64,000 bases of DNA, taken from contig CAVQLA010000008.1 in the NCBI GenBank assembly GCA_963713285.1, positions 67,733-131,732 of the forward strand, given 5' to 3'. Positions 5,674 to 57,256 of the stretch are shown in pieces (the stretch's first letter is position 1; the number at the start of each line of letters is the position of its first letter). The notes under the pieces were generated by a model. That model saw nothing but the letters and a program-made list of their open reading frames with translations. It was not told where the DNA came from and did no database searches. This stretch comes from an uncultured Chloroflexia bacterium. Lineage in GTDB: Bacteria > Chloroflexota > Limnocylindria > Limnocylindrales > CSP1-4. A program made the position numbers and the translations under genes.

Positions 5674-6870
<1,197 letters not shown>

Positions 6871-22160: not shown

Positions 22161-23357
<1,197 letters not shown>

Positions 23358-41563: not shown

Positions 41564-42502
41564 ATGTCCGAGCTCCTCGAGTCGATCGCCGGCCAGATCC
41601 GGCTGGCCACGCTCGTCGACATCGGGCTGACCGCCGTCGTCATCTACTGGGTCTTCAGCCTCATCCGCGGGACTCGGGCGGTTCGGCTCGTGATCGGCGT
41701 CAGCGTGATCCTCGCGATCTACGCGGTGGCCCAGGCCGCCGGCCTGCGGCTGTTCACCCAGCTGCTCCAGGCGGGCGCGGTGGTGGGCCTCTTCGCCTTG
41801 GTCGTCGTCTTCCAGCCCGAGCTGCGGCGCGGCCTCGAGCGGCTCGGCCGGGTGGGGTCGTTCGCGTGGCTGCTCTCGCCGGCCGACCAGCGGACGGCGG
41901 ATCGCGTCGCATCCACGGTTGCCCGGGCCGCGACCCGCCTCGCCGCGGCACGCGCCGGAGCGCTGGTCGTCATCGAGCGCGAGACCGGCCTGGAGGAGAT
42001 CGCCGAGACCGGCGTGATGATCCACGGCGACCTCACCTCGGACCTGCTCGAGGCGCTGTTCATCCCGCGCGGCGCCCTCCACGACGGCGCCGTCATCGTG
42101 CGCGGCGAGACGATCGTGGCCGCCGGGGCGCTCCTGCCGCTCGCCGAGACCACCCTGCAGGCCGAACGCTACGGGACGCGGCATCGGGCCGCGCTCGGCA
42201 TCACCGAGCAGACGGATGCGGTCGTCGTCGTCGTCTCGGAGGAGACCGGCCAGGCCAGCCTCGTCGAGCGGGCGCGGATCCGGCGCAACCTCGACGAGGC
42301 GCAGCTCACGCGGGCGCTCACGGCGCTCCTCCGGCCGGAGCGCCGGGGCGACGCGCTCCGTGACCGCCTCGGCCGGCCGGGTTCCTCGGCGGGTGGCCTG
42401 CGCCGCGCCGCGCTCGGCAACCTGGGGCGCACCGCGCGCGACGCGGGCGCGGACGAACCCCGCGACGACGTTCCCGGCGCGGCGGCCGGGGCGGGGCGCT
42501 GA
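41564..42502 (+). CDS. cdaA: diadenylate cyclase CdaA (DisA_N/DAC domain)
   Basis: Three N-terminal TM helices. DAC motifs DGAVIV and TRHRAALG. Followed by cdaR and glmM as in Firmicutes. Confidence 0.75.
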   Translation: MSELLESIAGQIRLATLVDIGLTAVVIYWVFSLIRGTRAVRLVIGVSVILAIYAVAQAAGLRLFTQLLQAGAVVGLFALVVVFQPELRRGLERLGRVGSFAWLLSPADQRTADRVASTVARAATRLAAARAGALVVIERETGLEEIAETGVMIHGDLTSDLLEALFIPRGALHDGAVIVRGETIVAAGALLPLAETTLQAERYGTRHRAALGITEQTDAVVVVVSEETGQASLVERARIRRNLDEAQLTRALTALLRPERRGDALRDRLGRPGSSAGGLRRAALGNLGRTARDAGADEPRDDVPGAAAGAGR

Positions 42503-42507
42503 CCTCG

Positions 42508-43788
42508 ATGCGCTCCGTCGTCGCGTTCGTGGTCCGCAACTGGCCGCTCAAGATCGCGGCCATCCTGCTCGCGACGCTGCTCTACGCCGGGCTCATCGTG
42601 TCGGCGTCGGCGGAGACCTTCCAGGGCCGGGTCCCGATCGAGATCCTCAACCAGCCGGAGGAGACGTACGTCCTGGGCGACCTGCCGGACGTGACGACGG
42701 TCCGCTATCTCGCGCTCGGCGCGGATCGCCCCCAGGTCACCTCGTCGACGTTCACGGCGACGGTCGACCTGTCGGACGCCCGCGCCGTGGCAGGCGCCCC
42801 GCCGCAGAGCGTCCCGGTGATCGTCCAGTCGATCGACCCGGCGATCCAAGTGATCGACTTCTCGCCGTCCCGCGTGGCCGTCCGCCTGGACCCGCTGGTC
42901 ACGAGCGAGGTCCCCGTGCGCGTCGACCTGGGCGTGGTCCCGCCCGGCCTCGACGTGCGCGAGCCGGTGGTCGCGCCCGACACCGTCCGGGTCTCCGGGC
43001 CGGAATCGGCGGTCCGGTTCGTGACGGCCGCCCAGGCGCGGGTGCGCATCGATCCGTCGGGCCTCGACGTCAACGAGACCGTCGGCCTGGAGCCGATCGA
43101 CGCCAGCGGCGAGGTCGTCGACGGCGTCGACGTCCAGCCCAGCTCGGCGCGCGTGACGATCCAGATCGGCAGCCAGCTGGCCACCCGGACGCTCCCCGTC
43201 AACGCCGTCGTGACGGGCACGCCGGACCCGGCCGTGGAGATCACCGGCGTCGACGTCCAGCCGGTGCTCGTCACCGTGGAGGGCGAGGCCGACGCGCTGG
43301 CGGGCGTCGTCTCGATCGACACCCGGCCGGTGTCGGTCTCGGGGGCGACCACCGACATCGACACGCAGGTGGGCCTCGCGCTGCCCGAGGGCGTCGCGGC
43401 CCTCGGTGTCGACCAGGTGCAGGTGGTCATCACGATCCGCCCGCGCTCCGGCACGCGCACCTTCGAGGCCGGCCTCGAGATCGTCAACGCGAACCCCGGC
43501 CTGGAGTACCGTCCCGCGGTGGACCGCGTGCTGCTGACCGTCGGCGGCACGCTGGAGGCCCTCGACGCGGTGGACCCGACCCGCATCGTCGCCCGCCTCG
43601 ACGTGGCCGGGCTCGGTCCGGGCACGAGCGCGGTGGCGGTGACGGTCCAGCTCCCGGCCGGCGTCAGCCTCGTCTCCGCGTCTCCCCAGGAGGTGTCCGT
43701 GACCGCGACGCCCGTCGCCACGCCCACGCCGGCCCCCACGTCGCAGGCCGCACCCGTCGAATCGCCGACGCCCAGCCTTGCGCCGTGA
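42508..43788 (+). CDS. cdaR: CdaA regulator CdaR (YbbR-like repeat protein)
   Basis: N-terminal TM anchor then repeated YbbR-like beta domains. Position between cdaA and glmM. Confidence 0.65.
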   Translation: MRSVVAFVVRNWPLKIAAILLATLLYAGLIVSASAETFQGRVPIEILNQPEETYVLGDLPDVTTVRYLALGADRPQVTSSTFTATVDLSDARAVAGAPPQSVPVIVQSIDPAIQVIDFSPSRVAVRLDPLVTSEVPVRVDLGVVPPGLDVREPVVAPDTVRVSGPESAVRFVTAAQARVRIDPSGLDVNETVGLEPIDASGEVVDGVDVQPSSARVTIQIGSQLATRTLPVNAVVTGTPDPAVEITGVDVQPVLVTVEGEADALAGVVSIDTRPVSVSGATTDIDTQVGLALPEGVAALGVDQVQVVITIRPRSGTRTFEAGLEIVNANPGLEYRPAVDRVLLTVGGTLEALDAVDPTRIVARLDVAGLGPGTSAVAVTVQLPAGVSLVSASPQEVSVTATPVATPTPAPTSQAAPVESPTPSLAP

Positions 43789-43790
43789 CG

Positions 43791-45122
43791 ATGGGACGCC
43801 TCTTCGGGACGGACGGGATCCGCGGCGTAGCCAACGTCGACCTCCGGGCGCCGCTGGCGTACGCGCTCGGGCGCGCGGTGGCCCACGAGCTCGCCGGGGC
43901 GGGCGGCGCCCTGGTGGTCGGCCGGGACACCCGGCGCTCGGGCGGCATGCTCGTGGCGTCGATCGCCGCGGGCGCGGCCAGCCTGGGAAGCGACGTCCAC
44001 GTGGTGGGGGTCCTCCCGACGCCGGCGCTCGCCTTCCTTGCCGGATCGGGGGCGTTCGCCGCCGGCGTGATGGTGTCCGCCTCCCACAACCCGGCCGACG
44101 ACAACGGCCTGAAGGTGCTCGACAGCCGGGGCCTCAAGCTCGACGAGCCCGCGGAGGACGCCCTGGAGCAGCTCATCTGGCGCGCCGAGGAGCTCGGCGG
44201 GCCGCGGAACGCCGGGATCGGCCGCCTCGTCGACGCCTCCGACCTCGCCGATCTCTACCGTGAGGACCGTGTCCGCCTCGCCCGGTCCACGCCGTGCGAT
44301 CTCCACATCGTCCTCGACTGCGCCAACGGGGCCGGCGGCGTGACGGCGCCGGAGATCCTCGCGGCCACCGGCGCCCGGATCGACGTGATCCACAACGCGC
44401 CCGACGGCGTGAACATCAACGCCGGCTGCGGGGCCACGGCCCCGGCATCCCTCGCCGCCGAGGTCGTCGCCCGCGGCGCCGACCTGGGCTTTGCCCTCGA
44501 CGGCGATGCCGACCGGCTGGTCGTCGTAGACCGGCACGGTCACGTGGTGGACGGCGACCAGCTTCTCGGCGTCTGCGCCCTCGACCGCCTGGCGCGCGCG
44601 GCGCTCCCGGGCGGGATCCTCGTCGTGACGGTCCTCTCGAACGGCGGTCTCGAGGCGGCCCTCCGGGCGGCCGGCGGCCACCTCGTCCGCACCCCGGTGG
44701 GCGACAAGTACATCCTCGAGGGGATGCAGGTGACCGGTGCCGGGCTCGGCGGCGAGAAGAGCGGCCACGTCATCGTGCTCGAGCATGCGAGCTCGGGCGA
44801 CGGCGTCGTGACCGGCCTCGAGCTGCTGGGGATCCTGGGCCGCGCGGGCCGGCCGATCGACGAGCTGGCGACGGCGATCCCGCTCTTCCCCCAGGAGCAG
44901 CGCGCCGTCCCGGCCCGCCGCAAGGAGCAGTGGGAGGCGGACCCGGTCCTCGGGGCGGCAATCGAGGAGGCGCGCGAGCGGCTCGGGTCGGGCGGCCGCG
45001 TCCTCGTCCGGCCGTCGGGAACAGAGCCGGCCCTGCGGATCATGGTCGAGGGAGCGGACGCCGCCGCGGTGGCCGAGCTGGCCGAGATGCTCGCTGCCGT
45101 GGCGGGCGAGCGCCTACACTAG
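43791..45122 (+). CDS. glmM: phosphoglucosamine mutase
   Basis: MGRLFGTDGIRG... Active-site SASHNPADDNG. GDGDADR Mg site. The track ORF 42216..45122 is an upstream read-through. Confidence 0.9.
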   Translation: MGRLFGTDGIRGVANVDLRAPLAYALGRAVAHELAGAGGALVVGRDTRRSGGMLVASIAAGAASLGSDVHVVGVLPTPALAFLAGSGAFAAGVMVSASHNPADDNGLKVLDSRGLKLDEPAEDALEQLIWRAEELGGPRNAGIGRLVDASDLADLYREDRVRLARSTPCDLHIVLDCANGAGGVTAPEILAATGARIDVIHNAPDGVNINAGCGATAPASLAAEVVARGADLGFALDGDADRLVVVDRHGHVVDGDQLLGVCALDRLARAALPGGILVVTVLSNGGLEAALRAAGGHLVRTPVGDKYILEGMQVTGAGLGGEKSGHVIVLEHASSGDGVVTGLELLGILGRAGRPIDELATAIPLFPQEQRAVPARRKEQWEADPVLGAAIEEARERLGSGGRVLVRPSGTEPALRIMVEGADAAAVAELAEMLAAVAGERLH

Positions 45123-45177: not shown

Positions 45178-47007
45178 ATGTGCGGAATCGTCGGCTACAC
45201 GGGACCTCGCGCGGCGGGCCCGATCCTCATGGAGGGACTGCGGCGCCTGGAGTACCGGGGCTACGACTCCGCCGGGATCGCCCTCGTGACCGAGGCCGGC
45301 GACCTCTTCGTGGAGAAGAAGGCCGGCAAGCTGGCCAACCTCGCCACGGCGATCGAGGATCGCACGCCGAGCTCCGGGATCGGTCTGGCGCACACGCGCT
45401 GGGCGACGCACGGCCGGCCCAACGACCTCAACGCGCACCCCCACGTGGACTGCACCGGGGAGATCACGGTCATCCACAACGGGATCATCGAGAACTTCCG
45501 CGAGCTCCGCGACGGGCTCGAGGCGCGCGGCCACCATCTCGCCTCGGAGACCGACACGGAGGCCCTGGCCCACCTGGTCGAGGAGGCATACCGCGGCGAC
45601 CTGGCCGCGGCCGTGCGGGCGGCGCTCGCGCGGGCCGAGGGGGCGTACGCCGTCGCCGTCATGCATCGGGGCGAGCCCGATCGGCTCGTCGGGGCCCGGA
45701 TGAACGTGCCGCTCGTGGTCGGGATCGGGGACGGCGAGACGTTCCTCGCCTCGGACGTGGCGGCGATCCTGGCCCACACCAACCGGGTCGTCTTCCTGGA
45801 GGAGGGCGACGTCGCCGACCTGCGGCCGTGGGGGATCACGATCACCGACGTGGCGGGGACGCCCGTCTCGCGCGCCGTCACCGAGGTCACGTGGACTGCC
45901 GAGGACGCCGAGAAGGGCGGCTACGAGCACTTCATGCTCAAGGAGATCCACGAGCAGCCACAGGCGCTGCGCCAGTGCGTGGCCGGGCGCGTGGCGCCGG
46001 ACGGCACGCTCCGCCTGGAGGAGCTGGCGCCGCTGGCGGACGTCTTCCGGACGATCACCCGCGTGGAGCTCGTCGCCTGCGGGACGGCCTCCTACGCATC
46101 GCTCGTGGGCGCCGCGCTGATCGAGAAGTGGGCCGGGATCCCCGCCCGCCTCACCGTCGGGTCGGAGTTCCGCTACAGCCCGCCACCGCTCGATGCGACG
46201 ACGCTCGTGATCGCCGTGACCCAGTCCGGCGAGACGGCCGACACGATCGCCCCGACGCGCTACGCCCGCGAGCGGGGCTGCCCGATCGTCGCCGTCACGA
46301 ACACCGTCGGGTCGGCGATCACCCGCGAGGCCGACGCCGTCCTCTTCCTGCAGGCGGGGCCCGAGATCGCCGTCGCGGCGTCGAAGACCTTCACGACCCA
46401 GGTTGCCACGCTGGTGATGGTGGCCGCCGCGATCGCCCACGCCCGGGGCGCGCTGCCGATCGAGGAGGAGCGCGCGCTCGTCGCCGCCCTTCGCGAGCTT
46501 CCCGACGCGGCCCAGCGCGCCCTCGACGCGTGTGCCGGCGTGCCCGACCTCGCCCGCCGCTACGTCAACAGCCGCGGCTTCATGTTCGTCGGCCGCGGGA
46601 CCTCCTACCCGGCCGCGCTCGAGGGCGCCCTCAAGCTCAAGGAGGTCAGCTACGTCCATGCCGAGGGGTACGCGGCCGGCGAGCTGAAGCACGGTCCGAT
46701 CAGCCTGCTCGACGCCGAGTGCCCGCTCGTGGCCGTCGCCACGCGCTCGACCGTCTACGACAAGCTGATGAGCAACGTGATGGAGGGCCGTGCGCGCGAC
46801 GCGCGCGTCATCGCCGTGGCGACGGAGGGCGACGCGCAGATCGACCGGTTCGCGGACGACGTGCTGTGGGTCCCCGACACGCTTGAGGCGCTGAGCCCGA
46901 TCCTCGCGATCATCCCGCTCCAGCTCTTCGCCTACCACACGGCCGTCGCCCGGGGCACGGACGTCGACCAGCCGCGCAACCTGGCGAAGTCGGTCACGGT
47001 CGAGTAG
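45178..47007 (+). CDS. glmS: glutamine--fructose-6-phosphate aminotransferase
   Basis: N-terminal MCGIVGY. Two SIS domains. Ends ...KSVTVE. Confidence 0.95.
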   Translation: MCGIVGYTGPRAAGPILMEGLRRLEYRGYDSAGIALVTEAGDLFVEKKAGKLANLATAIEDRTPSSGIGLAHTRWATHGRPNDLNAHPHVDCTGEITVIHNGIIENFRELRDGLEARGHHLASETDTEALAHLVEEAYRGDLAAAVRAALARAEGAYAVAVMHRGEPDRLVGARMNVPLVVGIGDGETFLASDVAAILAHTNRVVFLEEGDVADLRPWGITITDVAGTPVSRAVTEVTWTAEDAEKGGYEHFMLKEIHEQPQALRQCVAGRVAPDGTLRLEELAPLADVFRTITRVELVACGTASYASLVGAALIEKWAGIPARLTVGSEFRYSPPPLDATTLVIAVTQSGETADTIAPTRYARERGCPIVAVTNTVGSAITREADAVLFLQAGPEIAVAASKTFTTQVATLVMVAAAIAHARGALPIEEERALVAALRELPDAAQRALDACAGVPDLARRYVNSRGFMFVGRGTSYPAALEGALKLKEVSYVHAEGYAAGELKHGPISLLDAECPLVAVATRSTVYDKLMSNVMEGRARDARVIAVATEGDAQIDRFADDVLWVPDTLEALSPILAIIPLQLFAYHTAVARGTDVDQPRNLAKSVTVE

Positions 47008-47015
47008 GCGCGGCC

Positions 47016-47603
47016 GTGGACGCGACGCCGCCGATCCCGGCCGGGACGGCCGAGCTGGGCCTCGACATCATCCGCGTCGACCGCATTCGCGAGGCGCTCG
47101 ACCGCTTCGGCGAGCGCTTCGTCGGGCGGGTCCTCACCGCGGCGGAGGCCCGCTACGTCCGGGGCCGGCCCGAGACGTTCGCCGGGCGCTGGGCGGCCAA
47201 GGAGGCCGTCAGCAAGGTCCTGGGGCTCGGCGTCCGAGGCATCGGCTGGCGCGACATCGAGATCGAGCGGCTGCCCACGGGCCAGCCGGCGGTGCGGCTC
47301 CACGGGCGTGCGGCGGCCCGCGCCGACCAGCTGGGTCTCGACCGGGTTGCCGTCAGCATCACTCACGAACGGGAGTACGCGCTGGCGATCGCCTTCGGCA
47401 TCCGCCGCAGCGGCGGTCGGTACGTCCTGCCGCCGGACATCGACGAGCGCCTCGACGAACGCGAGCAGGCGCTCCTCCGGCGCATGGACCGCCTCCGGGC
47501 GCTCGCCGGCGAGGCGGCCGTGCTCGAGGCGCGGACCGGCGCCGGGGGCACGCGGGAGGCGGGAGGCCCCGCCGGTGCCGCGCGGGAGGCGGCCCGTGAC
47601 TGA
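47016..47603 (+). CDS. acpS: holo-[acyl-carrier-protein] synthase with C-terminal extension
   Basis: GLDIIRVDRI...WAAKEAVSKVLG core. About 70 extra C-terminal residues. Confidence 0.75.
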   Translation: MDATPPIPAGTAELGLDIIRVDRIREALDRFGERFVGRVLTAAEARYVRGRPETFAGRWAAKEAVSKVLGLGVRGIGWRDIEIERLPTGQPAVRLHGRAAARADQLGLDRVAVSITHEREYALAIAFGIRRSGGRYVLPPDIDERLDEREQALLRRMDRLRALAGEAAVLEARTGAGGTREAGGPAGAAREAARD

Positions 47604-48588
47604 GCTCGAGCAGCTCGACGAGCGCCTCGCCGCGGCGCTCCTGCCGCCCCGGCCCGCCCGCGGCCACAAGGGCACGTTCGGCAAGCTGCTCGTCGTGGCC
47701 GGGTCCCTCGACTACGCCGGCGCCGCGCTCCTCGTCTGCCAGGCCGCCGGGCGCGCCGGCGCCGGCCTCGTGACGCTGGCGGTGCCCGAGTCGCTCCAGC
47801 CGCTGTTCGCGGCCAAGGTCGTGGAGGCGACGACGATGCCGCTCGACGAGGACGACGTCGAGGAGGTCGACCCGGAGCCGGCGCTGGCGCGCATCCTCGA
47901 CCACGACCACGACGCGCTGGTCATCGGGCCCGGCCTGCGGCCATCGCTCGCAACCGGCGAGCTGGTGCGGGGCGTCCTCGGCCCGGCGGCCGGCGACGAC
48001 GCCTGCCCGGCGGTCGTCGACGCCGAGGCACTGCGGACCCTGGCGGCGGAGGACGGGTGGTGGGAGGGCGTCCGCCGCCGGTCGGTCCTGACGCCCCACG
48101 CGGGGGAGTTCGCCCGCCTGCGGGCCGCCTCAGGCATCTCGCCCGGTGCCGACGGCGATCTCAACGAGGACGACGAGGCGCGCCGCGAGGCGGCCTGCGA
48201 CGCCGCGGTGACCTGGGGTCACGTCGTCGTGCTCAAGGGGGCCCGCACGGTGATCGCCGCGCCGGACGGAAGCGCGGCAGGCGCCCCGTTCGAGAACCCC
48301 GGGCTGGCCACGGGCGGGACCGGCGACGTGCTGTCCGGCACGATCGGGGCGCTCCTCGCGCAGGGCCTCGGCCCCTATGCCGCGGCGCGCCTGGGCGTGT
48401 ACCTCCACGGCATGGCCGGGGACGCGGCGCGGGCGCGGATCGGCGACGCGGGGCTCCTCGCCGGGGACCTCCCCCTCGAGATCGCCCTGGCGCGCCGGCG
48501 CCTGGCCGCGGACGCGGAGCGGCGGGCCGGCGGGCGTGTCGGCTTCCGCGAATCGGCCGCCGGGACACAGCCGACCGACTCCGCGTGA
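47596..48588 (+). CDS. nnrD: ADP-dependent NAD(P)H-hydrate dehydratase (YjeF C-terminal domain)
   Basis: KGTFGKLLVVAGS..., GPGLR..., TPHAGEFARL, GGTGDVLSG motifs. Confidence 0.85.
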   Translation: MTELEQLDERLAAALLPPRPARGHKGTFGKLLVVAGSLDYAGAALLVCQAAGRAGAGLVTLAVPESLQPLFAAKVVEATTMPLDEDDVEEVDPEPALARILDHDHDALVIGPGLRPSLATGELVRGVLGPAAGDDACPAVVDAEALRTLAAEDGWWEGVRRRSVLTPHAGEFARLRAASGISPGADGDLNEDDEARREAACDAAVTWGHVVVLKGARTVIAAPDGSAAGAPFENPGLATGGTGDVLSGTIGALLAQGLGPYAAARLGVYLHGMAGDAARARIGDAGLLAGDLPLEIALARRRLAADAERRAGGRVGFRESAAGTQPTDSA

Positions 48589-49928
48589 CCGGGTCCGACC
48601 GGGGCGTCCCCGGGGTCGAGACGCGCCTCCGCCTGGCCGGCCTGCCGGCCCTGCCCCGCACGGCGTGGCTGGAGATCGACCTCGACCGCCTGGCCGGCAA
48701 CGTGGCCGCCATCCGCGCGGCGCTTCCGCGGGGCGTCACCCTCGAGGTGGTGGTGAAGGCCGATGCCTACGGCCACGGCGCCGTCCCGATCGCGTGGGCG
48801 GCCCTTGCGGCGGGTGCCCGCGGCCTCTGCGTGGCGACCCTGGACGAGGCCCTGGAGATCCGGCAGGCCGGCATCGAGGCGCCCATGCTCGTCCTCTTCC
48901 CGATCCCCCCGGCGGCCGCGCCCGTGGCCGCCCGTGCCGGGGTCGCGATCGCCGCGGGCGACGCCGGCCTCCTCGCCGATGCCCTCGCGGCGTATGCCGC
49001 CGCCCGCCGGCGCGCCCGCCGGGAGCTGCCGGCCCTCGGCATCCAGCTCGCGCTCGAGACGGGGCTGGGCCGGGACGGCCTCGCGCCGGAGGAGGCCGTC
49101 GCGGCTGCTCGTGGCGTGGCGGCCACCCCCGGGGCCGTGCTCCTGGGTGCCTGGTCCCACCTCCAGGCTCCCGCGGACCGGGCCCGCACCGACGACCAGG
49201 TGGATCGCTTCACGGCGGCCCTCGCGGCGCTCGGCAAGGCGGGTGTCGTCGTGGCCCATCGCCACGTCCTGGCCTCGGGCGGGCTCCTGGCGGTGGAGCG
49301 GCTCGTCGGCGGCGAGCGTCCCGTCTTCGACGGTCTGCGTGTCGGGCTGGCCGCCTACGGCATCGTGCCCGAGGGCCTGCCGATCGGCGCCGCGGCGTCG
49401 GGCATCCACGCGGGCCTCCGGCCGATCCTGTCGTTGCGAGCGCGCCCGATCCGGGTCGCCGACCTGCCGCCCGGCACGGGCATCAGCTACGGGCCGAGCT
49501 TCATCACGACCCGCCCGAGCCGGATCGCCACGCTGCCGGTCGGCTACGCGGACGGGTGGGCGCGGATCCTCTCGAACCGGGCGACGGCCCTCGTGCGCGG
49601 CGTCCGTGTCCCGCTCGTCGGCAACGTGGCCATGGACGCCGTCATGGCGGACGTCACGGACGTCCCCGGATCCCCGGTCACGGAGGCCGACGAGTTCGTC
49701 CTCATCGGGCAGCAGGGGGACGACGAGATCACCGCGGCAGAGGTGGCGCAGGAGCGCACCACGATCAGCTGGGAGGTGGTCGCGGCGATGGCCCGGCGCC
49801 TGCCCCGGGTGTACACTGCGCGGGCCGTGGCGGTCGGAATCCGCACGCTCACCGAGGATCGGGGGACATGGCGCGGCTTGCGCTCTGGAACGGCGACATC
49901 TGCGACCTCGAGGTCGACGCGATCGTGA
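48585..49928 (+). CDS. alr: alanine racemase (GTGA overlap with nnrD); the C-terminus may be artificially long
   Basis: PLP-site motif VVKADAYGHG. Overlaps the downstream macro-domain gene by 61 nt. Confidence 0.85.
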   Translation: MTGSDRGVPGVETRLRLAGLPALPRTAWLEIDLDRLAGNVAAIRAALPRGVTLEVVVKADAYGHGAVPIAWAALAAGARGLCVATLDEALEIRQAGIEAPMLVLFPIPPAAAPVAARAGVAIAAGDAGLLADALAAYAAARRRARRELPALGIQLALETGLGRDGLAPEEAVAAARGVAATPGAVLLGAWSHLQAPADRARTDDQVDRFTAALAALGKAGVVVAHRHVLASGGLLAVERLVGGERPVFDGLRVGLAAYGIVPEGLPIGAAASGIHAGLRPILSLRARPIRVADLPPGTGISYGPSFITTRPSRIATLPVGYADGWARILSNRATALVRGVRVPLVGNVAMDAVMADVTDVPGSPVTEADEFVLIGQQGDDEITAAEVAQERTTISWEVVAAMARRLPRVYTARAVAVGIRTLTEDRGTWRGLRSGTATSATSRSTRS

Positions 49929-50401
49929 ACCCCGCGAACGTCACGCTCTGGATGTCCACGGGCGTCGCCGGGGCGATCAAGCGCCGAGGAGGGGACGCGA
50001 TCGAGTTCGCCGCCGTCCGCCAGGCCCCCGTCCAGCTGGGCGGCGCCGTCGTCACCGATGCGGGGAGCCTCGCCGCCCGCTGGGTGATCCATGCCGTCTC
50101 CCTCGACCACCAGCGCCGGACCAGCGCGGAGGCGATCGCGGCGGCCGTCCGCAGCGCCTTCACCCGCGCCCGCGAGCTGGGCGTGGAGACGCTCGCCATC
50201 CCGGCGCTCGGCACCGGCGTCGGGGGCTTCCCCCTGGACGAGGCGGCCCGCATCACGGTCGCCACGGTGCGGGCCGAGGTCGGCCGGCTGCCGCGGCTCC
50301 ACACGGTGACGTTCGCCCTGCGCGGCGCCGCCGCCTACGAGGCCTTCCGGGCCGCGCTCGCGGCCCCCGCCCCGGCGCCGTCGATCGGTGGCCCGGTGTG
50401 A
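49868..50401 (+). CDS. stand-alone macro-domain protein (MacroD/YmdB-like ADP-ribose or O-acetyl-ADP-ribose hydrolase family)
   Basis: NGDICDLEVDAIVNPANVTLWMSTGVAGAIKRRGG..., HAVSL..., AIPALGTGVGGFP match macro-domain signatures. RBS GGGGGAC. Confidence 0.75.
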   Translation: MARLALWNGDICDLEVDAIVNPANVTLWMSTGVAGAIKRRGGDAIEFAAVRQAPVQLGGAVVTDAGSLAARWVIHAVSLDHQRRTSAEAIAAAVRSAFTRARELGVETLAIPALGTGVGGFPLDEAARITVATVRAEVGRLPRLHTVTFALRGAAAYEAFRAALAAPAPAPSIGGPV

Positions 50402-50694
50402 CCGGGCCTGCCGGCGAGATCCCGACCCCCGAGCAGCGCGCCGAGCTCGTCGAGGAGGTCGCCCGCGAGATCCTGCTCCACGGCATGACCGGCCCGGCGA
50501 TGCTCTTCCTGCAGGCCAGCATGCCCGACGGGATGGTGCCGGGCAGCGCGATGCTCTTCTTCGATCCCGTGCTGCGCCGGCTCTTCGGTGACGCGAACAC
50601 GCCCGCATCTGCGATCCTCGCCGACGAGCTCGGGATCGAGCAGCTCATCGATCGGCTCGAGGAGCTCGACGAGGACGTGAGCTGGGACGCGTGA
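50398..50694 (+). CDS. hypothetical 98-aa protein (no recognisable domain)
   Basis: GTG overlaps the macro stop (GTGTGA). Stop overlaps the start of the next gene. Acidic C-terminus (EELDEDVSWDA). Confidence 0.4.
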   Translation: MTGPAGEIPTPEQRAELVEEVAREILLHGMTGPAMLFLQASMPDGMVPGSAMLFFDPVLRRLFGDANTPASAILADELGIEQLIDRLEELDEDVSWDA

Positions 50695-52367
50695 CCCAGG
50701 CGGCCCCCCCGGAGGGCGCGACCGGGGCGGCGCCGACGGCCGCGCTGGACCTGCGGGTCGGCGCCTTCGCGACCCTGGACCGGGGCACGGCCACCTGCGC
50801 GGCCGCGCTCGTCGGGCGGGTTGCCGGACGCCGGCGCCTCCTCGTCGCGGCGGCCGTGCCCGCGGGAGCCGATCCGGACGAGCTGGTCGCGGTCCTCTCC
50901 GCCAGGGTCCGGGTCGCCGATCGGGCGCTCGCCGACGAGCTCGGGCTCGCGCCGGACGACGCCGGCTCCGACGTCGGCGCCCGGGGCGAGCCCCCGGCGG
51001 CGCTTCCCCGGATCCAGGCAATCGGCAGCCCTGCCCCCCTCGCGGCCGTCGTGGCGGCGACGGAGGAGACCCGCCGCCGCCTCGACGCCGACGCCAGCGC
51101 CGCCGGCTGGCGCACCGTCGGCGCCAGCGCGGAGCGTGACGACCCGCTGGCAGTGACGCGCCTCGCCACGCGCCCCGACGTCTCCACCCTCATCGTCGGG
51201 ACGGGCGACCCTGCCAGCGTGGACGAGCGGGACCTCCTCGGGGAGCTGGTTGCGCTCGCCGCGGGGATCGCGGAGCGCCGACAGGACCTGGGCGTCGTCC
51301 TCGTCGGCGCCGTCGCGTCCCGCGCCGCGGACTTCCCCCTCGCGACCGCCGTGCTGCTGGTGCCCAGGCCGCACGGCGACCCCGCCACGGACCTCCGGGG
51401 GATCCTCGCCGCCCACCGGGCGGGCCCGGGCGACCCACGCCAGGCGTTGGCCGCCGTGACCGGGACCATCGCCGAGGTGCTCGACCTCCGCGTGGAGCTT
51501 CTCGACATCGGCATGAGCGGCGCGCTGCGGGCGCGGGCGGAGCCCGGCCCGCGGGCCGGGGACCCCGCCCGGGTCGTCGCCGTGGAGGTGCCGGATGCCG
51601 TCCTGGGGTTGGCCGACGACGACGCCGCCCTCGACCGCGTCGAGGCGTGGGCGACGCTCGGCATCGATCGCGCGCGCCTGCGGGACCGGCTCGCGGAGCT
51701 TCGCCTGAGCCCGTGGGTCGACCTCGGCGGCGAGGGGGCGCTGCTGCGCGCCGCGGCGCTGCGCGCCGCCCTCGAACGCCTCGACGCCGTCACCGCGGCG
51801 GAGCTGGGCGGGCCGGCCCCCGACCTGGTGGTCCTGGCCGGTGGGTCCTGGTCGGCGATCCCGGCCCCGGCGGCCCTCCTCGTCCTGGCGGATGGCCTGC
51901 GCCGGCCGGGTGTCGTCCAGGTCGCTCTCGACCCGGCTCGCCTCCTCGCCCCGCTCGGGACGATCGAGGACGACGATGAGCGCCGCGCGCTGCTCGGCGA
52001 CCTGGTCGGCGATGCGCTCGTGCCGCTCGGCACGCTCGCGGTCGCCCGCGGGATCCGCGGCGGTCGCGCGGCCGGCCATCTCCGGCTCGTCGCCCGCGAG
52101 GCGCCCGTCGACCTCGCCCTTGCCGCGGGCCGGCTCGGCCTCGTCGACCTGCCTCCCGGAGAGGCCGGAGAGGCGAGCCTTGCCTTCCGCTCGCCGGTCG
52201 ACCTCGGCGTACGAGGCCGGCGCTTCGCCGTCCCCGCGACCGGCGGCCTCGCCGGCCTCGTCGTGGATCTGCGCGACATCCCGCTGCGGCTCCCGGAGCG
52301 CGCGGACGAGCGCCGGGACCTCCTCGCCGGCTGGGAGGCTGCGCTCTGGCCGGAGCGCGACCGGTGA
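50691..52367 (+). CDS. hypothetical 558-aa Ala/Leu/Arg-rich protein; weak resemblance to ASKHA (actin/Hsp70-like ATPase) motifs
   Basis: LDRGTATCAAALVG resembles a phosphate-1 motif. STLIVGTGDPAS and DLVVLAGGSWSAIPAP resemble phosphate-2/adenosine motifs. Translationally coupled on both sides. Confidence 0.45.
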   Translation: MTQAAPPEGATGAAPTAALDLRVGAFATLDRGTATCAAALVGRVAGRRRLLVAAAVPAGADPDELVAVLSARVRVADRALADELGLAPDDAGSDVGARGEPPAALPRIQAIGSPAPLAAVVAATEETRRRLDADASAAGWRTVGASAERDDPLAVTRLATRPDVSTLIVGTGDPASVDERDLLGELVALAAGIAERRQDLGVVLVGAVASRAADFPLATAVLLVPRPHGDPATDLRGILAAHRAGPGDPRQALAAVTGTIAEVLDLRVELLDIGMSGALRARAEPGPRAGDPARVVAVEVPDAVLGLADDDAALDRVEAWATLGIDRARLRDRLAELRLSPWVDLGGEGALLRAAALRAALERLDAVTAAELGGPAPDLVVLAGGSWSAIPAPAALLVLADGLRRPGVVQVALDPARLLAPLGTIEDDDERRALLGDLVGDALVPLGTLAVARGIRGGRAAGHLRLVAREAPVDLALAAGRLGLVDLPPGEAGEASLAFRSPVDLGVRGRRFAVPATGGLAGLVVDLRDIPLRLPERADERRDLLAGWEAALWPERDR

Positions 52368-53347
52368 ACGGCCTCGCGCTCGTGCCCACGCGCCGGCTGC
52401 TCGTGGAGCGGCCGCGCGTGGTCGTCCCCCTGCTGCCCGGCGACCGGGTCGTCGTCACCATCGGAGCGTCGGTCGTCCCCGGCGACCTGCTGGCGGAGCG
52501 CGTTCGCGATCCGCGCCTCGTCGAGACCGGCGACGGCGACAGTGGTTCCGGGACCACGCATCCGGGCTCCTGGGTCGCCGCGGAAGCCGGCCGGCGCGGC
52601 ACCGCGCCGGCCGGCGAGCTTCTCTTCGAGCACGGGGGGCGGCGTCGCATCGCGACGGGCCCGCATCCCGATCTCGTCGCAGCCCCGGGCGCGGGCAGGG
52701 TGACGGCGATCCACCCGGGTGTCGAGATCGTGCTCGAGCTCGAGGGTGTCGGCATCCCCGGGTGCGAGCTGCTCGGCGATCCTGGGCACGGCCGCCTGGC
52801 GTTGCTGCCGGGCGACGGGGACGGGCGCGTCCCGCTCGACGTGGCTCATGCCGGCGCGATCGTCGTCTTCCCGGGGCGCGCGGACGCCGAGACGCTCACC
52901 CGCGCCCGGGCCATGGGCATCGCCGGGGCGGTGGTGCCGGCGCTCGCCGAGCGCGATCGGCGCGACGTCGTGGCCTCCGAGGCGCGCCAGCGGGCCGGCC
53001 TCCATCGCCTCGCCCCCTTCCCGGTGCTCGTCGTCGACGGCTACCTGCGTCGCCCCCTGGCGAGCCCCGTGCGCGAGATCCTCGCCGGCCTCGCGGGGGT
53101 CGAGGTCGGGCTCGTGGGTGGGCCGCCCCTGCTGATCGCGCCCGTGGCCGAGGGCGAGGTCGCCCGACCGGACGTGGAGCTCGTGCGGGTGCGGGGCGGC
53201 TCCGAGGTGGGTCGCGAGGGCCGGTTCCTGGGCCTCGCCGGCCCCCGGCGCCTGCCGGGTGGCGTGGTCGCCGAGGCGGGCCGCGTGCACCTCGACGACG
53301 GCCGCGACGTCGTCATCGCGCTCGGTGACCTCGAGCGCTTCGTCTAA
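52364..53347 (+). CDS. hypothetical 327-aa protein (no recognisable domain)
   Basis: GTGA overlap with the previous gene. Gly/Val/Pro-rich. Followed by a hairpin, then tsaE. Confidence 0.4.
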   Translation: MNGLALVPTRRLLVERPRVVVPLLPGDRVVVTIGASVVPGDLLAERVRDPRLVETGDGDSGSGTTHPGSWVAAEAGRRGTAPAGELLFEHGGRRRIATGPHPDLVAAPGAGRVTAIHPGVEIVLELEGVGIPGCELLGDPGHGRLALLPGDGDGRVPLDVAHAGAIVVFPGRADAETLTRARAMGIAGAVVPALAERDRRDVVASEARQRAGLHRLAPFPVLVVDGYLRRPLASPVREILAGLAGVEVGLVGGPPLLIAPVAEGEVARPDVELVRVRGGSEVGREGRFLGLAGPRRLPGGVVAEAGRVHLDDGRDVVIALGDLERFV

Positions 53348-53429
53348 GGGGGCCCGCCCCGCGGCGGCGGATCGCGGGCCGGTTCGTGTGCGGGTCCTCG
53401 GACCCCGGCGCTTCTTGTAGGCTCTTGCG

Positions 53430-53900
53430 GTGACACCGCCCTCCGCCGCCGTCCGGCGGACCAGCCCCTCGGCCGCCGCGACGCGCGCCCTCGGCGTGCG
53501 CCTCGGCGCAGCCGCCGCCGCCGGCGACGTGATCGCCCTGGTGGGTCCGCTCGGCGCCGGCAAGACCGAGCTGGCGCGCGGGATCGCGCGGGGCCTCGAC
53601 GTCGAGGAGCCGATCACGTCCCCGACCTTCATCCTGGTCGCCGAGCACCCCGGGCGCGCGACGCTCTTCCACGTCGACTGCTACCGCCTCGCCGGTGCGG
53701 CCGACGCCCTGGCCGCGGGGATCCTCGACGAGCGCGCGGCGGAGGGCGTCACCGTCGTCGAGTGGGCCGACCGGATCGGCGCGGCCCTGCCGCCGGGACG
53801 CCTGGAGATCGTGATCGACGGCGCCGGCGATGAGCCCCGCACGCTCGACCTGCGGGCGACGGACGCCCGCCACGCGCGCCTGCTGGAGGCCGTGGCGTGA
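53430..53900 (+). CDS. tsaE: tRNA threonylcarbamoyladenosine biosynthesis protein TsaE
   Basis: Walker A GPLGAGKT. TsaE/YjeE family. Confidence 0.85.
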   Translation: MTPPSAAVRRTSPSAAATRALGVRLGAAAAAGDVIALVGPLGAGKTELARGIARGLDVEEPITSPTFILVAEHPGRATLFHVDCYRLAGAADALAAGILDERAAEGVTVVEWADRIGAALPPGRLEIVIDGAGDEPRTLDLRATDARHARLLEAVA

Positions 53901-54628
53901 CGGGCCGGCCGGTCGCCGGGACCGCAGCGCCCTTCCTCGCGATCGACACCGCGACGTCGACGGCGGTGCTGGCGCTGGGCGCCCGCGACGGGACGCTCCT
54001 CGCCGCGGATGCGTGGGAGGCCGGGCATCGCCACGCGGAGGAGTTGCTCTCCCGGATCGCGGCCCTGCTGAGCGCGGCCGGGATCGGGCGTCCCGGACCG
54101 GGGGCGCTGGCGGGCGTGGTCGTCGGGACCGGGCCGGGCGGCTTCACCGGCCTCCGGGTGGGGCTTGCGACGGCCCGCGGGATCGCCCGGGCGAGCGGCG
54201 CGCCGCTGATCGGCGTGCCGACAGGGGTTGCGCTCGCCGCCGCCGCGCGGACGGGGGGAGTCGTGGCGCCGGACGCCGCCGTTGCGGTCCTCCTGCCGGC
54301 CGGCCCGGCCGGGCGCTACCTCGTGCGCGAGGGGCACGCGGAGCTCGCGCCCGCGGCGGACGGCTCGGCCGGCGAGGACGCCCCCGGCGACTGGTCCCGG
54401 GACGCCGTCCTCGTGGCGGTGGACCTCGCCGGGCGGGCGCCCGCCGACGCCGTGGCCCGCGGCGCGGCCGCGCAGGCAGGCCTTGCGGGGGTGCTCGTCG
54501 CCCTGGGTGCGGCGCGGCTCCGCGCAGGTGAGGACGACGGGGAGACGCTGGCCCCGGAGTACGTGACGCTGCCGCGCGGGGTGGCCGCGGCCGCGGGGGA
54601 GGTGGCATGGTCGCCCGCCCACCCCTGA
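53897..54628 (+). CDS. tsaB: tRNA threonylcarbamoyladenosine biosynthesis protein TsaB
   Basis: LAIDTATSTAVLAL... YeaZ-like inactive Kae1 homologue. Confidence 0.8.
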   Translation: MTGRPVAGTAAPFLAIDTATSTAVLALGARDGTLLAADAWEAGHRHAEELLSRIAALLSAAGIGRPGPGALAGVVVGTGPGGFTGLRVGLATARGIARASGAPLIGVPTGVALAAAARTGGVVAPDAAVAVLLPAGPAGRYLVREGHAELAPAADGSAGEDAPGDWSRDAVLVAVDLAGRAPADAVARGAAAQAGLAGVLVALGAARLRAGEDDGETLAPEYVTLPRGVAAAAGEVAWSPAHP

Positions 54629-55149
54629 GGTTCGTCATCGAACGGATGACGCACGCCGACCTTGCCGCCGTTCAGGCGATCGAGAAGGCGAGCTTCACCA
54701 CGCCTTGGCCGTCGTACGCCTACCGCAACGAGCTCGAGACGAACCGCCTCGCCCACTACCTCGTCGTCCGCGCCGGGCGCGAGGTGATCGCGTACGCCGG
54801 CGTGTGGCTGATGGTCGACGAGGCGCACGTGACCACGTTCGCCGTAGCGCCCGCGTGGCGCCGCCGGCGCATCGGCGAGCGCCTCATCCTCGCCCTCCTC
54901 GACCTGGCCATCGCGCGCGGGGCCCGCGAAGCGACCCTCGAGGTGCGGCTCTCGAACCTGGGGGCGCGCCGGCTCTACGAGAGGTACGGGTTCCGCCCGG
55001 TCGGCATCCGCCCGCGCTACTACAGCGACGACCACGAGGACGCCCTGATCATGACGACGGAGCCGCTGGAGGCGCCGGCGATGGTGGCTCGCCTCGCGAG
55101 GCGGCGTGCCGAGCTTGACGCCCTGCCGGACCCCGAGGCGCCGGCATGA
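54607..55149 (+). CDS. rimI: ribosomal-protein-alanine N-acetyltransferase
   Basis: GNAT fold (…[16 protein letters not shown]…). Conserved tsaB-rimI-tsaD order. Confidence 0.8.
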   Translation: MVARPPLRFVIERMTHADLAAVQAIEKASFTTPWPSYAYRNELETNRLAHYLVVRAGREVIAYAGVWLMVDEAHVTTFAVAPAWRRRRIGERLILALLDLAIARGAREATLEVRLSNLGARRLYERYGFRPVGIRPRYYSDDHEDALIMTTEPLEAPAMVARLARRRAELDALPDPEAPA

Positions 55150-56345
55150 GCCGCGGCGGCGTCGGCGGCGGCAGCAGCAGCGGCCTCCTCCTGGCCGTCG
55201 AGTCCTCGTGCGACGAGACCGGCGTCGCCCTCCTCGACGGTCCCCGCCGGATCGTCGCCCAGGCCGTCGCGAGCCAGGTCGCGCTCCATGCCGGGACCGG
55301 GGGCATCGTGCCGGAGCTCGCCGCGCGGGCGCACCTGCGCTGGATCGATCCGGCTCTCGACGAGGTCCTCGAGGCGGCCGGCGCGACGCTCGCCGACGTG
55401 CGGGCCGTCGCCGTCACGGCCGGCCCGGGGCTCGTCGGCTCGCTGCTCGTCGGCCTCGCGTACGCCAAGGCGGTCGCCTGGTCGCTCGAGGTCCCGCTCG
55501 TCGGGGTCAACCACCTCGAGGGGCACCTGTACGCGGCCTGGCTCCTCGACCCGGGCGAGGCGGAGCGGCCCGAGCCGGCGTTCCCGCTCGTCGCGCTCGT
55601 CGTGTCGGGGGGCCACACGTTCCTCGTCGAGATGCGGGACCACCTTGCCTACCGGCTCCTGGGCGAGACGGTCGACGACGCGGCCGGCGAGGCGTTCGAC
55701 AAGGCCGGGCGCCTCCTCGGCCTGGGCTACCCCGGCGGGCCGGCGATCGCCGCGGCCGCCGCCGACGCGGCCGGGCCGGTCGAGCGCCTGCCGCGGGCCT
55801 GGCTCGGCGACTCGTTCGACTTCAGCTTCTCGGGGCTCAAGACCGCCCTCCGCCGGCTCGTCGAGGCGGAGCTGCACGCGGCCGGCCTGCCGTCGGCGGA
55901 GGACGGCGGGCACCTCCCGGCCGGGCGCGTTGCCGCGCTCGCGGCGGCCTTCCAGGACAGCGTCGTCGACGTCCTGGCCGCCAAGACGCTGCGGGCGACG
56001 GAGGCCACCGGCGCCCGAACGGTCGTGGTCGGCGGCGGAGTGGCATCGAACGAAGCCCTGCGCGCCCGGCTGGCGGCGGGTGCCGCCGCCCTCGGCGTCG
56101 ACCTCGTCATCCCGCGTCCGGGGCTCTGCACGGACAACGGGGCGATGATCGGCGCTGCCGGCGCCCGCCGCCTCGCCGCCGGCGAGCGCGCCGGCCTCGA
56201 CCTCGGCGTCCGCGCGTCGTGGCCGCTCGCCCGCCCGGCCGGCGCCCCGACCTCGCGCCGTCCGCCGACGCGCGGCGCGGCGGCCCGCGCGTATGCCGCG
56301 GCGCGGGACGCGGAGGCGGATGCCGCGGGGCGGGTCACCCGGTGA
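55146..56345 (+). CDS. tsaD: tRNA N6-adenosine threonylcarbamoyltransferase
   Basis: Kae1/TsaD motifs (LAVESSCDETGVAL, GVNHLEGH, VSGGHTFL). Confidence 0.9.
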   Translation: MSRGGVGGGSSSGLLLAVESSCDETGVALLDGPRRIVAQAVASQVALHAGTGGIVPELAARAHLRWIDPALDEVLEAAGATLADVRAVAVTAGPGLVGSLLVGLAYAKAVAWSLEVPLVGVNHLEGHLYAAWLLDPGEAERPEPAFPLVALVVSGGHTFLVEMRDHLAYRLLGETVDDAAGEAFDKAGRLLGLGYPGGPAIAAAAADAAGPVERLPRAWLGDSFDFSFSGLKTALRRLVEAELHAAGLPSAEDGGHLPAGRVAALAAAFQDSVVDVLAAKTLRATEATGARTVVVGGGVASNEALRARLAAGAAALGVDLVIPRPGLCTDNGAMIGAAGARRLAAGERAGLDLGVRASWPLARPAGAPTSRRPPTRGAAARAYAAARDAEADAAGRVTR

Positions 56346-57256
56346 GCGGCACGCGCGCGCCGATCCGCCTCGATCCCGGCGCCGTGCGGCGGACGCTCCG
56401 CGAGGCCGGCCTCCGGGCGCAGCGGCGCTTCTCCCAGAACTTCCTCGTCGACGTGGAGGTCCTCGAGGACATCCTGGCGGCCGCTGCGCCGGCCCCGGAC
56501 CGGCGGGTCCTCGAGATCGGGCCGGGACTGGGGATCCTGACCGGTGGGCTGCTCGGGGCCGGTGCCCGGGTCACCGCCGTAGAGATCGACCGCGGGATGG
56601 TCGCCCACCTGCGCGAGGCCTTCGCCCTCGAGCTCGCGGCCGGCACGCTGATCCTCGTGGAGGGGGACGTGCTCGACGAGGATCTCGCCGCCCTGGTCGC
56701 CGCCCCCTACGACGTCGTGGCGAACCTGCCCTACCACGTGACGAGCCCCGTGCTGCACCGGCTCCTCGGCGGTGAGGCGGGGCCGCGCCCCGAGCGCTGT
56801 GTCCTCATGGTCCAGCGCGAGGTGGCCGAGCGGATCGCGGCACCCCCCGGCGGGATGAGCTATCTCTCGGTGTTCGTCCAGTACCACGCCGCCGCGTCGA
56901 TCGTCCGTCGCGTCCCGCGCGCGGCGTTCGAGCCGGCCCCGGCGGTCGAATCGGCGATCCTCGCGCTCGACGTGCGCGCCCCCGACGCGCTCGGCCGCCT
57001 GCCCGTCGCGATGGAGGACAGCCTCTGGCGGCTCGTGCAGGCCGGCTTCCGCGAGCGGCGCAAGATGCTCCACAACGTGCTGCCGCGCCAGCTGCCGATC
57101 GAGCCGGCCACGGTCGCGGCCGCGCTCGAGGCGGCCGGGATCGACGGCGATCGCCGGCCCCAGACGCTGGGAGTGGGGGAGTGGATCGCCCTGCTGGGCG
57201 CGCTCGGGCCGATCCCGGAGGATCGCCGCGGCCGGCGGTCGGACGCGCCGGGATGA
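56342..57256 (+). CDS. rsmA: 16S rRNA (adenine1518-N6/adenine1519-N6)-dimethyltransferase
   Basis: GQNFLVD, VLEIGPGLGILT, NLPYHVTSP motifs. The track ORF 55106..57256 is an upstream read-through. Confidence 0.9.
   Translation: MSGTRAPIRLDPGAVRRTLREAGLRAQRRFSQNFLVDVEVLEDILAAAAPAPDRRVLEIGPGLGILTGGLLGAGARVTAVEIDRGMVAHLREAFALELAAGTLILVEGDVLDEDLAALVAAPYDVVANLPYHVTSPVLHRLLGGEAGPRPERCVLMVQREVAERIAAPPGGMSYLSVFVQYHAAASIVRRVPRAAFEPAPAVESAILALDVRAPDALGRLPVAMEDSLWRLVQAGFRERRKMLHNVLPRQLPIEPATVAAALEAAGIDGDRRPQTLGVGEWIALLGALGPIPEDRRGRRSDAPG

Follow-up and report, generated by a model that had tools for sequence, protein, structure and literature searches.

T558 is a protein of 558 amino acids (aa) encoded at 50691..52367 (GTG start, TGA stop at 52365-52367) in a 64-kb stretch with 72% G+C of the uncultured Chloroflexia contig CAVQLA010000008.1, in the following referred to as the window. 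The T558 features and neighbouring genes given with coordinates below are all located on the plus strand. T558 is a class-restricted variant of the GlmL/MutL family of actin/Hsp70-like (ASKHA) proteins that carries an extra C-terminal domain and has an obligate partner, the 327-aa protein p327. Its host, Candidatus (Ca.) Limnocylindria, is a class of Chloroflexota represented by metagenome-assembled genomes (MAGs) only. The best explanation, which we regard as probable, is that T558 is the GlmL/MutL-derived ASKHA subunit of a two-protein unit formed with p327, the client of which is not a neighbouring B12 mutase. A first-pass annotation made from the sequence alone had described faint ASKHA motifs in this open reading frame (ORF).

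Relation of T558 to the GlmL family

Pfam PF13941, named "MutL", is the GlmL family and not the mismatch-repair protein MutL. T558 is connected to this family through its distant relatives. Seven of the 32 distant members of the T558 family match PF13941 with a best E of 2.2e-24, and four of them exceed the gathering score of 27 bits (86.5, 56.6, 43.5, and 39.7 bits). The T558 family profile finds P0370, P0343, P0339, and P0373, which have PF13941 scores of 39.7-86.5 bits, at approximately E 1e-30 to 1e-37. The best of these, P0370, and many of its relatives carry the NCBI name "glutamate mutase L [Candidatus Limnocylindria bacterium]". These PF13941-positive proteins are termed the sister group here, and hhalign aligned the T558 family (alignment A1) with the sister group (alignment A5) end to end (99.96%, E 3.6e-39, 510 columns), i.e., the homology to PF13941 members extends across the whole domain. 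In the A1/A5 alignment the phosphate-1 motif DRGTATCA of the T558 family pairs with DxGSAWTK of the sister group, the insert motif TLIVGTGDP with WLLAGGFD, the phosphate-2 motif LDIGMSGAL with VDLGARYAT, and the adenosine motif DLVVLAGG with DLLIGxGR. The PF13941-matching sister proteins and the profile-profile alignment therefore identify T558 as a far-diverged GlmL-family ASKHA protein. From the ASKHA families named in the first-pass annotation for profile searches, MutL/GlmL was thus found to be the right one, via the sister proteins and hhalign, with no direct match of T558 itself.

T558 and GlmL/MutL (PF13941; TIGR01319, glmL_fam; NF040745) share the ASKHA fold and, over aa ~27-440 of T558, the same order of elements, namely phosphate-1 hairpin, LLAGG-type insert, phosphate-2 hairpin, and adenosine motif. 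In contrast to GlmL, T558 gives no direct match to the hidden Markov models of the family, has lost the phosphate-1 lysine and possesses ~118 additional C-terminal residues containing its strongest motifs. Its gene is furthermore accompanied by that of the obligate partner of 327 aa and mostly by one for a protein of ~90 aa, and the mutase subunit genes glmS and glmE are not adjacent. T558 did not reach the gathering threshold of PF13941 (27 bits) and one close homologue only gave E 0.25. Searches of PDB sequences with phmmer for T558 and with hmmsearch for the family profile resulted in noise only (thioredoxin, E 0.077; PPCS, E 0.7). T558 also shows no match to the equivalog models NF040745 (cutoff 475 bits) and TIGR01319 (cutoff 204), and by this profile evidence it is not a GlmL equivalog. 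The sister group likewise scores far below the equivalog cutoffs, with P0370 reaching 38.7 bits against NF040745 and 41.5 bits against TIGR01319 over the N-terminal ~200 residues only. The GlmL-related ornithine degradation protein Or-4 (NF040744) belongs to the same PF13941 superfamily and is weakly matched by P0370 (E 1.7e-5). However, P0370 scores 23.6 bits against a cutoff of 600 and no ornithine aminomutase genes are located nearby. The literature search yielded no papers on PF13941 or DUF6754, and GlmL was mentioned only in passing.

Predicted fold and nucleotide-site motifs

AlphaFold2 was run on T558 with an alignment of 41 sequences and resulted in a confident model with a predicted local distance difference test score (pLDDT) of 86.9 and a predicted template modelling score (pTM) of 0.88, with pLDDT < 50 only at aa 1-19 and 91-101. 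A Foldseek search of this model against the PDB gave 70 matches at E <= 1e-3, the best 50 of which are all ASKHA proteins (E 3e-6 to 4e-4), including PilM, glycerol kinase, FtsA, Hsp70/DnaK/Hsp110, Ppx/GppA, acetate kinase, and BcrAD-type and HgdC-type ATPases. No competing non-ASKHA fold occurs among these best 50 matches. The actin/Hsp70-like fold that had been suspected from weak motif resemblance is therefore borne out by structure prediction, and the confident match to another fold that would have spoken against it was not encountered among the best 50. The order of secondary structure elements fits two RNase-H-like lobes. Lobe I is formed by strands 25-31, 35-44, and 47-57 and helix 62-84, a connecting helix (aa 249-264) leads over to the second lobe, and lobe II contains strands 268-274, 277-284, and 294-300, long helices, strand 379-383, a helix and strand 407-414. 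The N-terminal tail (aa 1-24, 50691..50762) cannot be aligned, varies in length among homologues and has pLDDT < 50 at aa 1-19; it is probably disordered.

The three segments quoted by the first-pass annotation are all present in T558, i.e., LDRGTATCAAALVG at aa 29-42, STLIVGTGDPAS at aa 165-176, and DLVVLAGGSWSAIPAP at aa 378-393, and their conservation was counted in a close set of 41 and a distant set of 32 homologues. The phosphate-1 loop TLDRGTATCA (aa 28-37, 50772..50801) is located in the beta1-beta2 hairpin of domain I (strands 25-31 and 35-44), which is the first hairpin of lobe I, and its D-x-G motif lies where strand 25-31 ends. D30 is conserved in 38/41 close and 30/32 distant sequences and G32 in 41/41 and 31/32, and the proposed phosphate-1 assignment holds with both residues placed as the fold requires. 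The adenosine motif DLVVLAGGSWSAIP (aa 378-391, 51822..51863) comprises strand 4 of domain II (379-383) and the following turn with helices 385-388 and 392-403, so that the two glycines of DLVVLAGG follow strand 4 of lobe II. D378 is conserved in 40/41 close and 29/32 distant sequences, G384 in 38/41 and 30/32, and G385 in 41/41 and 24/32; this assignment, too, was right. The segment that had been taken as phosphate-2 (VSTLIVGTGDPA, aa 164-175, 51180-51215) is located within the insert of domain I and is followed by the conserved residues D178-E179-R180. STLIVGTGDPAS is conserved at G170, D173, and P174, with strand 164-170 and helix 177-196 in the AlphaFold2 model. Conservation of the motif positions in homologues thus supports the phosphate-1 and adenosine segments as proposed, while the quoted phosphate-2 segment, although conserved, is misplaced, being part of an alpha/beta insert of domain I and not of the first hairpin of domain II. 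The actual phosphate-2 motif is LLDIGMSG (aa 270-277). It lies in the hairpin VELLDIGMSGALRA (aa 268-281, 51492..51533) formed by the first two strands of domain II (268-274 and 277-284) after helix 249-264, with the D-x-G signature at aa 272-277. Here, [DE]272 is found in 41/41 close and 30/32 distant sequences, G274 in 41/41 and 31/32, and G277 in 41/41 of the close set. T558 accordingly keeps the phosphate-1 (D30-x-G32), the phosphate-2 ([DE]272-x-G274..G277) and the adenosine (G384-G385) signatures of the ASKHA proteins.

Two further regions decorate the core. The insert of domain I (aa ~105-225, 51003..51365) shows conservation and alternating beta and alpha elements at aa 107-224 with G139-W140 being invariant, and aligns with the LLAGGFD-motif region of the sister proteins. 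Its matches in the PDB are generic alpha/beta proteins only (MoaB, E 0.006; short-chain dehydrogenase, E 0.004). A MoaB/MogA-like insert was considered and rejected: E 0.006 was obtained with the sister profile, but the insert-only profile matched a short-chain dehydrogenase at E 0.004. The evidence for this insert does not go beyond a generic Rossmann-like signal. The C-terminal ~118 residues (aa 441-558, 52011..52364) form a beta-rich domain with a terminal helix (strands within 444-526, final helix 538-552 in the model). They constitute a family-specific extension, because the PF13941 model of 450 positions covers aa ~27-440 and the canonical GlmL models have 448-459 positions. The strongest motifs of the T558 family are located in this extension (LVDLPPG, GGLAGLVVDLRDxPLRLPER, R541-R542, and W548).

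T558 is a genuine gene under purifying selection on the chromosome of a Ca. Limnocylindria member. The ORF of 558 codons was recovered as described, from GTG 50691 to the stop at 52365-52367, and the opinion of the first-pass annotation that it is real is supported by codon-position G+C, public gene calls and homologues. The G+C content at codon positions 1/2/3 is 0.88/0.57/0.93 for T558, compared to 0.73/0.49/0.96 for glmS and 0.83/0.58/0.96 for tsaD, so that T558 resembles these two neighbouring certain genes, a comparison that had been recommended. This frame is regarded as coding because of this resemblance, the presence of the exact product in public gene calls, and the 230 homologues found at E <= 1e-3. 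The latter are all unnamed or "hypothetical", with identities down to ~50% among the matches listed. An exhaustive profile search with the T558 family yielded 909 cluster representatives, and full-length homologues reach down to ~25% identity.

Partner, locus layouts and proposed role

The gene of the partner p327 (52364..53347) shares a GTGA overlap with the T558 gene, and both are translationally coupled in the window. The partner follows the ASKHA gene in 80/81 compact loci (described below), the exception being a contig end, and in all five sister-group loci with the whole gene on the contig. The partners are homologous across the layouts, as judged by BLASTP (E 2e-13) and hhalign (99%, E 3e-18, 274 columns). 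As the partner is present and homologous in all layouts, the ASKHA protein and the partner therefore represent the invariant core of the locus. None of the 756 homologues of p327 has a Pfam domain. The AlphaFold2 model of p327 is confident (pLDDT 86.5) and has no global structural match, with weak local likeness to KOW/SH3-like barrels (uL24, eS4, Spt5), to the insertion domain of Thermotoga maritima NusG and to Biotin_lipoyl_2. In the predicted structure, p327 reads as N-terminal lipoyl/barrel-sandwich-like hairpins, a central beta-alpha-beta unit and a C-terminal KOW-like barrel. The central unit carries the invariant motif DAETLTRARAMGIAG. A swiveling domain of phosphoenolpyruvate-utilizing enzymes with a His to Glu exchange was considered for the central motif DAETLTRARAMGIAGAVV, which was not supported by a PDB profile search, Pfam scans of 30 members, or Foldseek.

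When each GTDB species was represented by one genome, a scan yielded 196 relatives; alignment A2 was too divergent to serve for the locus search. The best 80 of the 196 relatives are all from MAGs labelled Chloroflexota, Chloroflexia, or Ca. Limnocylindria/Limnocylindrales, save a few that are probably mislabelled bins. A few loci labelled Isosphaeraceae, Verrucomicrobiia, or Anaerolineaceae show Limnocylindria-type synteny, which suggests that these labels belong to mislabelled bins. Two contigs of one MAG (SMAG_U2991; loci L014 and L046) each carry an ASKHA locus with 54% and 45% identity to T558, and this bin probably mixes two species.

In 85 loci a T558-type gene is located between alr and tsaE and is followed by p327. 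The compact layout, found in 81/81 compact loci, is glmS-acpS-nnrD-alr-(macro)-s98-T558-p327-tsaE-tsaB-rimI-tsaD, with the gene for the small protein s98 present in 81/81 and a macro-domain gene in 70/81. The s98-type small protein has ~90 aa, looks helical and usually precedes T558. The sister group shows a long layout (L082, 4862-8004; L084, 5788-9004; L085, 5801-9004; L086, 3296-6499), in which the same alr-tsaE slot is occupied by a seven-gene cluster where four membrane-protein genes separate the ASKHA gene from that for the small protein. These encode a DUF6754 protein of ~280-297 aa and proteins of ~205 aa, ~261-287 aa, and ~214 aa, the latter three without any family match. Neither the window nor any of the 81 compact loci contains the four membrane genes. 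s98 and the 83-88-aa protein encoded first in the long clusters are homologous (hhalign 98.5%, E 2.2e-15; tblastn ~1e-15). A minimal layout, consisting of alr-ASKHA-partner-tsaE only, was found in L087 (3346-6098), with neither small protein nor membrane genes. No B12-dependent mutase gene was found in the 64-kb window or in any examined locus, and in no locus is the ASKHA protein encoded together with glmS and glmE mutase subunit genes, as GlmL is. An anti-phage defence system was also considered and rejected, as PADLOC matched neither the ASKHA protein and its partner nor the small protein or any of the four membrane proteins.

The composition of T558 is extreme (A 20.8%, L 14.7%, R 11.1%, G 10.4%, V 9.3%, D 9.0%), in agreement with the Ala/Leu/Arg/Asp bias remarked on earlier, and it contains no Lys, Asn, or Tyr. 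The products of s98, T558, and p327 together (983 aa, 50398-53347) lack lysine completely, compared to 12 lysines in GlmS, 4 in TsaD, 2 in Alr, and 1 in the macro-domain protein. Close T558 homologues have 0-1 lysines per sequence and 27/29 sequences of the p327 family have none. The sister proteins have 1-2 lysines each, one of which is the invariant phosphate-1 lysine, i.e., essentially only that one is kept. T558 shows identities of 42-77% across loci, while GlmS is mostly 76-92% identical across the same loci (54% and 64% in two loci with only part of glmS aligned). The low lysine content and the faster divergence of T558 compared to GlmS fit rapid evolution under strong G+C pressure, and the lysine loss raises the possibility of an altered ATP turnover in T558.

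In the explanation favoured here, the ASKHA protein and p327 would form a two-protein complex, as suggested by their co-occurrence and the gene overlap. When a nucleotide is bound or hydrolysed in the cleft between the lobes, the ASKHA protein would change its conformation and transmit this change to the partner, presumably in the same general manner as the large and small subunits of ASKHA-type chaperone/reactivase systems. The client would not be a neighbouring B12 mutase, because none is encoded in the locus, and would more likely be a class-specific cellular component, in the case of the long cluster possibly a membrane complex. More tentatively, the ASKHA protein and its lipoyl/KOW-barrel partner might constitute an undescribed Limnocylindria-specific two-component machine, in which the GlmL scaffold was recruited to a B12-free core function, e.g., in the envelope or membrane, and became fixed in the alr-tsaE locus. 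Such a machine would include the small protein and the four membrane proteins in some lineages. This reading is possible, with odds that we put below even.

Several findings weigh against the reading of T558 as ASKHA subunit of a unit with p327. T558 itself has no Pfam or NCBIfam match even at E 10. The TM-scores to solved ASKHA structures are low (0.2-0.35); the core is therefore common, but decorations and lobe orientation differ strongly. The invariant phosphate-1 lysine of the sister group is replaced by Ala37 in the T558 family, and given its absence ATP hydrolysis by T558 may be weak or lost. The putative complex of T558 and p327 is deduced from co-occurrence and gene overlap, and a window of 64 kb leaves room for a B12 enzyme at another place in the genome.

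This last point is taken up by the alternative that T558 is a trans-acting GlmL-type reactivase, using ATP to free damaged cobalamin from a B12 mutase (glutamate mutase, ornithine or lysine aminomutase) the genes of which are located outside the window. The homology of T558 to the PF13941/GlmL family and the NCBI name of the sister proteins are in line with this, as is the literature, in which MutL/GlmL is treated as a chaperone for glutamate mutase reactivation in analogy to diol dehydratase reactivase (PMC4682846). We consider this improbable: neither the window nor the examined loci contain a mutase subunit gene, the gene is fixed between alr and tsaE, and the best sister protein stays at 38.7 against 475 and 41.5 against 204 bits for its N-terminal ~200 residues only. 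Moreover, the extra C-terminal domain and the obligate 327-aa partner lie outside the published glmS-glmL-glmE arrangement, and the role of GlmL itself is based on analogy and not on an assay. As to the reactivases, DdrA/DdrB (diol/glycerol dehydratase reactivase) and EutA follow a plan in which a large ASKHA subunit with inserted domains works with a small subunit. T558 with its insert and smaller partner resembles this plan, by analogy only, whereas DdrA, DdrB and EutA are not among the best 50 PDB matches of T558, p327 is barrel-rich with weak KOW/NusG-type matches only and no match to a reactivase subunit, and no B12 enzyme is present in the T558 locus. For diol dehydratase reactivase, PMC4682846 cites Mori and Toraya (1999).

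T558 might instead be a membrane-associated actin-like scaffold of the PilM/FtsA/GspL kind that would attach to membrane proteins and organise an envelope machine, of which the window lineage would have a reduced form. PilM and FtsA are the best-scoring solved structures (ranks 1-6, 8, and 12; E 3e-6 to 5e-5), the sister lineage encodes its four membrane proteins, one of them DUF6754, directly upstream in the same cluster, and the locus is embedded in the cell-wall precursor genes glmM, glmS, and alr. Nevertheless, the TM-scores to PilM/FtsA are only 0.22-0.36, and similar scores are obtained for glycerol kinase, Hsp70, Ppx, and acetate kinase. The resemblance is structural only, with no FtsA or PilM Pfam match in T558 or in 73 scanned family members, while the sequence homology points to GlmL. 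The membrane genes are furthermore missing from the window, the 81 compact loci and L087, yet the pair persists, so that we assign a low probability to a scaffold as well. Another option is a degenerate, nucleotide-independent ASKHA pseudo-enzyme serving as structural subunit for its partner. This would fit the lost phosphate-1 lysine, the faster evolution compared to the neighbours (42-77% against 76-92% for GlmS) and the extreme G+C-driven composition without lysine. It is nonetheless unlikely, since the phosphate-1 Asp/Gly, the phosphate-2 Asp/Glu-Gly and the adenosine Gly-Gly are near-invariant across ~25-30% identity, and such conservation would hardly be expected if no ligand were bound in the cleft. 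Many active ASKHA ATPases do not possess a lysine at the position concerned, e.g., in the phosphate-1 loops of Hsp70 and MreB. The remaining explanation, a spurious high-G+C ORF with the real gene antisense, could appeal to the extreme composition and to overlapping antisense ORFs of 995 aa (50645-53632) and 608 aa (50253-52079). It is practically negligible, as the codon-position G+C fits the plus frame and not the antisense frames, the antisense ORFs have no Pfam matches, and T558 has full-length homologues down to ~25% identity and a confident fold prediction. The two antisense ORFs were accordingly rejected as genes and the spurious-ORF reading is refuted.

T558 as GlmL-derived partner of p327 is of interest for the family as a whole. 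The assumption that GlmL/MutL proteins reactivate B12-dependent mutases is based on analogy only. In the present case, an entire bacterial class has retained a protein derived from GlmL without an adjacent mutase and tied to an uncharacterised partner in a housekeeping operon, which suggests that the GlmL-family scaffold serves other clients. The "hypothetical proteins" of this type should be annotated as divergent GlmL-family ASKHA proteins, and the NCBI name "glutamate mutase L" for the sister group overstates what is known. T558 and p327 offer a concrete pair in which complex formation, the client and a possible ATPase activity can be studied, and the seven genes of the long layout represent a further target.

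Neighbouring genes and further observations in the window

The plus strand of the window carries rpoBC and a ribosomal-protein and secY cluster, followed by glmM, glmS, acpS, nnrD, alr and further genes, tsaE, tsaB, rimI, and tsaD. The slot of T558 has constant borders. On the left this is the alanine racemase gene alr (48585..49928; Pfam Ala_racemase_N and Ala_racemase_C) and on the right tsaE (53430..53900; Pfam and NCBIfam TsaE), followed by tsaB, rimI, and tsaD. The macro-domain gene (49868..50401, ATG start at 49868, 177 aa; Pfam Macro, E 5.7e-27), of ADP-ribose-binding or hydrolase type, shares 61 nt with the end of alr. Occurring in only 70/81 loci, it is a variable neighbour and not a constant part of the module. 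The gene for the 98-aa protein s98 (50398..50694), the module's first gene in most lineages, has GTGA overlaps on both sides, and its exact product is contained in public gene calls. The genes are thus chained by GTGA overlaps of 4 nt, i.e., macro/s98 at 50398, s98/T558 at 50691, and T558/p327 at 52364. The 4-nt overlaps of T558 with both neighbours that had been cited in support of the ORF are real, but the upstream one is shared with s98 and not with an ORF of 643 aa. The latter (48763-50694), which had been taken as the gene upstream of T558, is a chimeric frame across alr, the macro-domain gene and s98, with three successive coding frames in a plot of G+C at the third codon position. A second case is the ORF at 42216-45122 (968 aa), in which glmM domains are found only in the last ~440 residues and a separate frame (42508-43788) covers the first half. 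Both examples show that long ORFs of this high-G+C window fuse several real genes. A scan of 47000-56500 for sigma-70-like promoters and intrinsic terminators found none.

Other genes encoding ASKHA-fold proteins, tsaB (53897-54628) and tsaD (55146-56345), are located 1.5-3 kb downstream and belong to a different family (Pfam TsaD). The adjacency of alr and tsaE exists in other phyla without the module, and no functional link of tsaB/tsaD to T558 is therefore indicated. The window also contains two tuf genes for EF-Tu (398 aa), one upstream of the rpoBC region (5674-6870) and the other after fusA (22161-23357). Their DNA is 99.8% identical over 1197 nt, which suggests a recent gene conversion or duplication.

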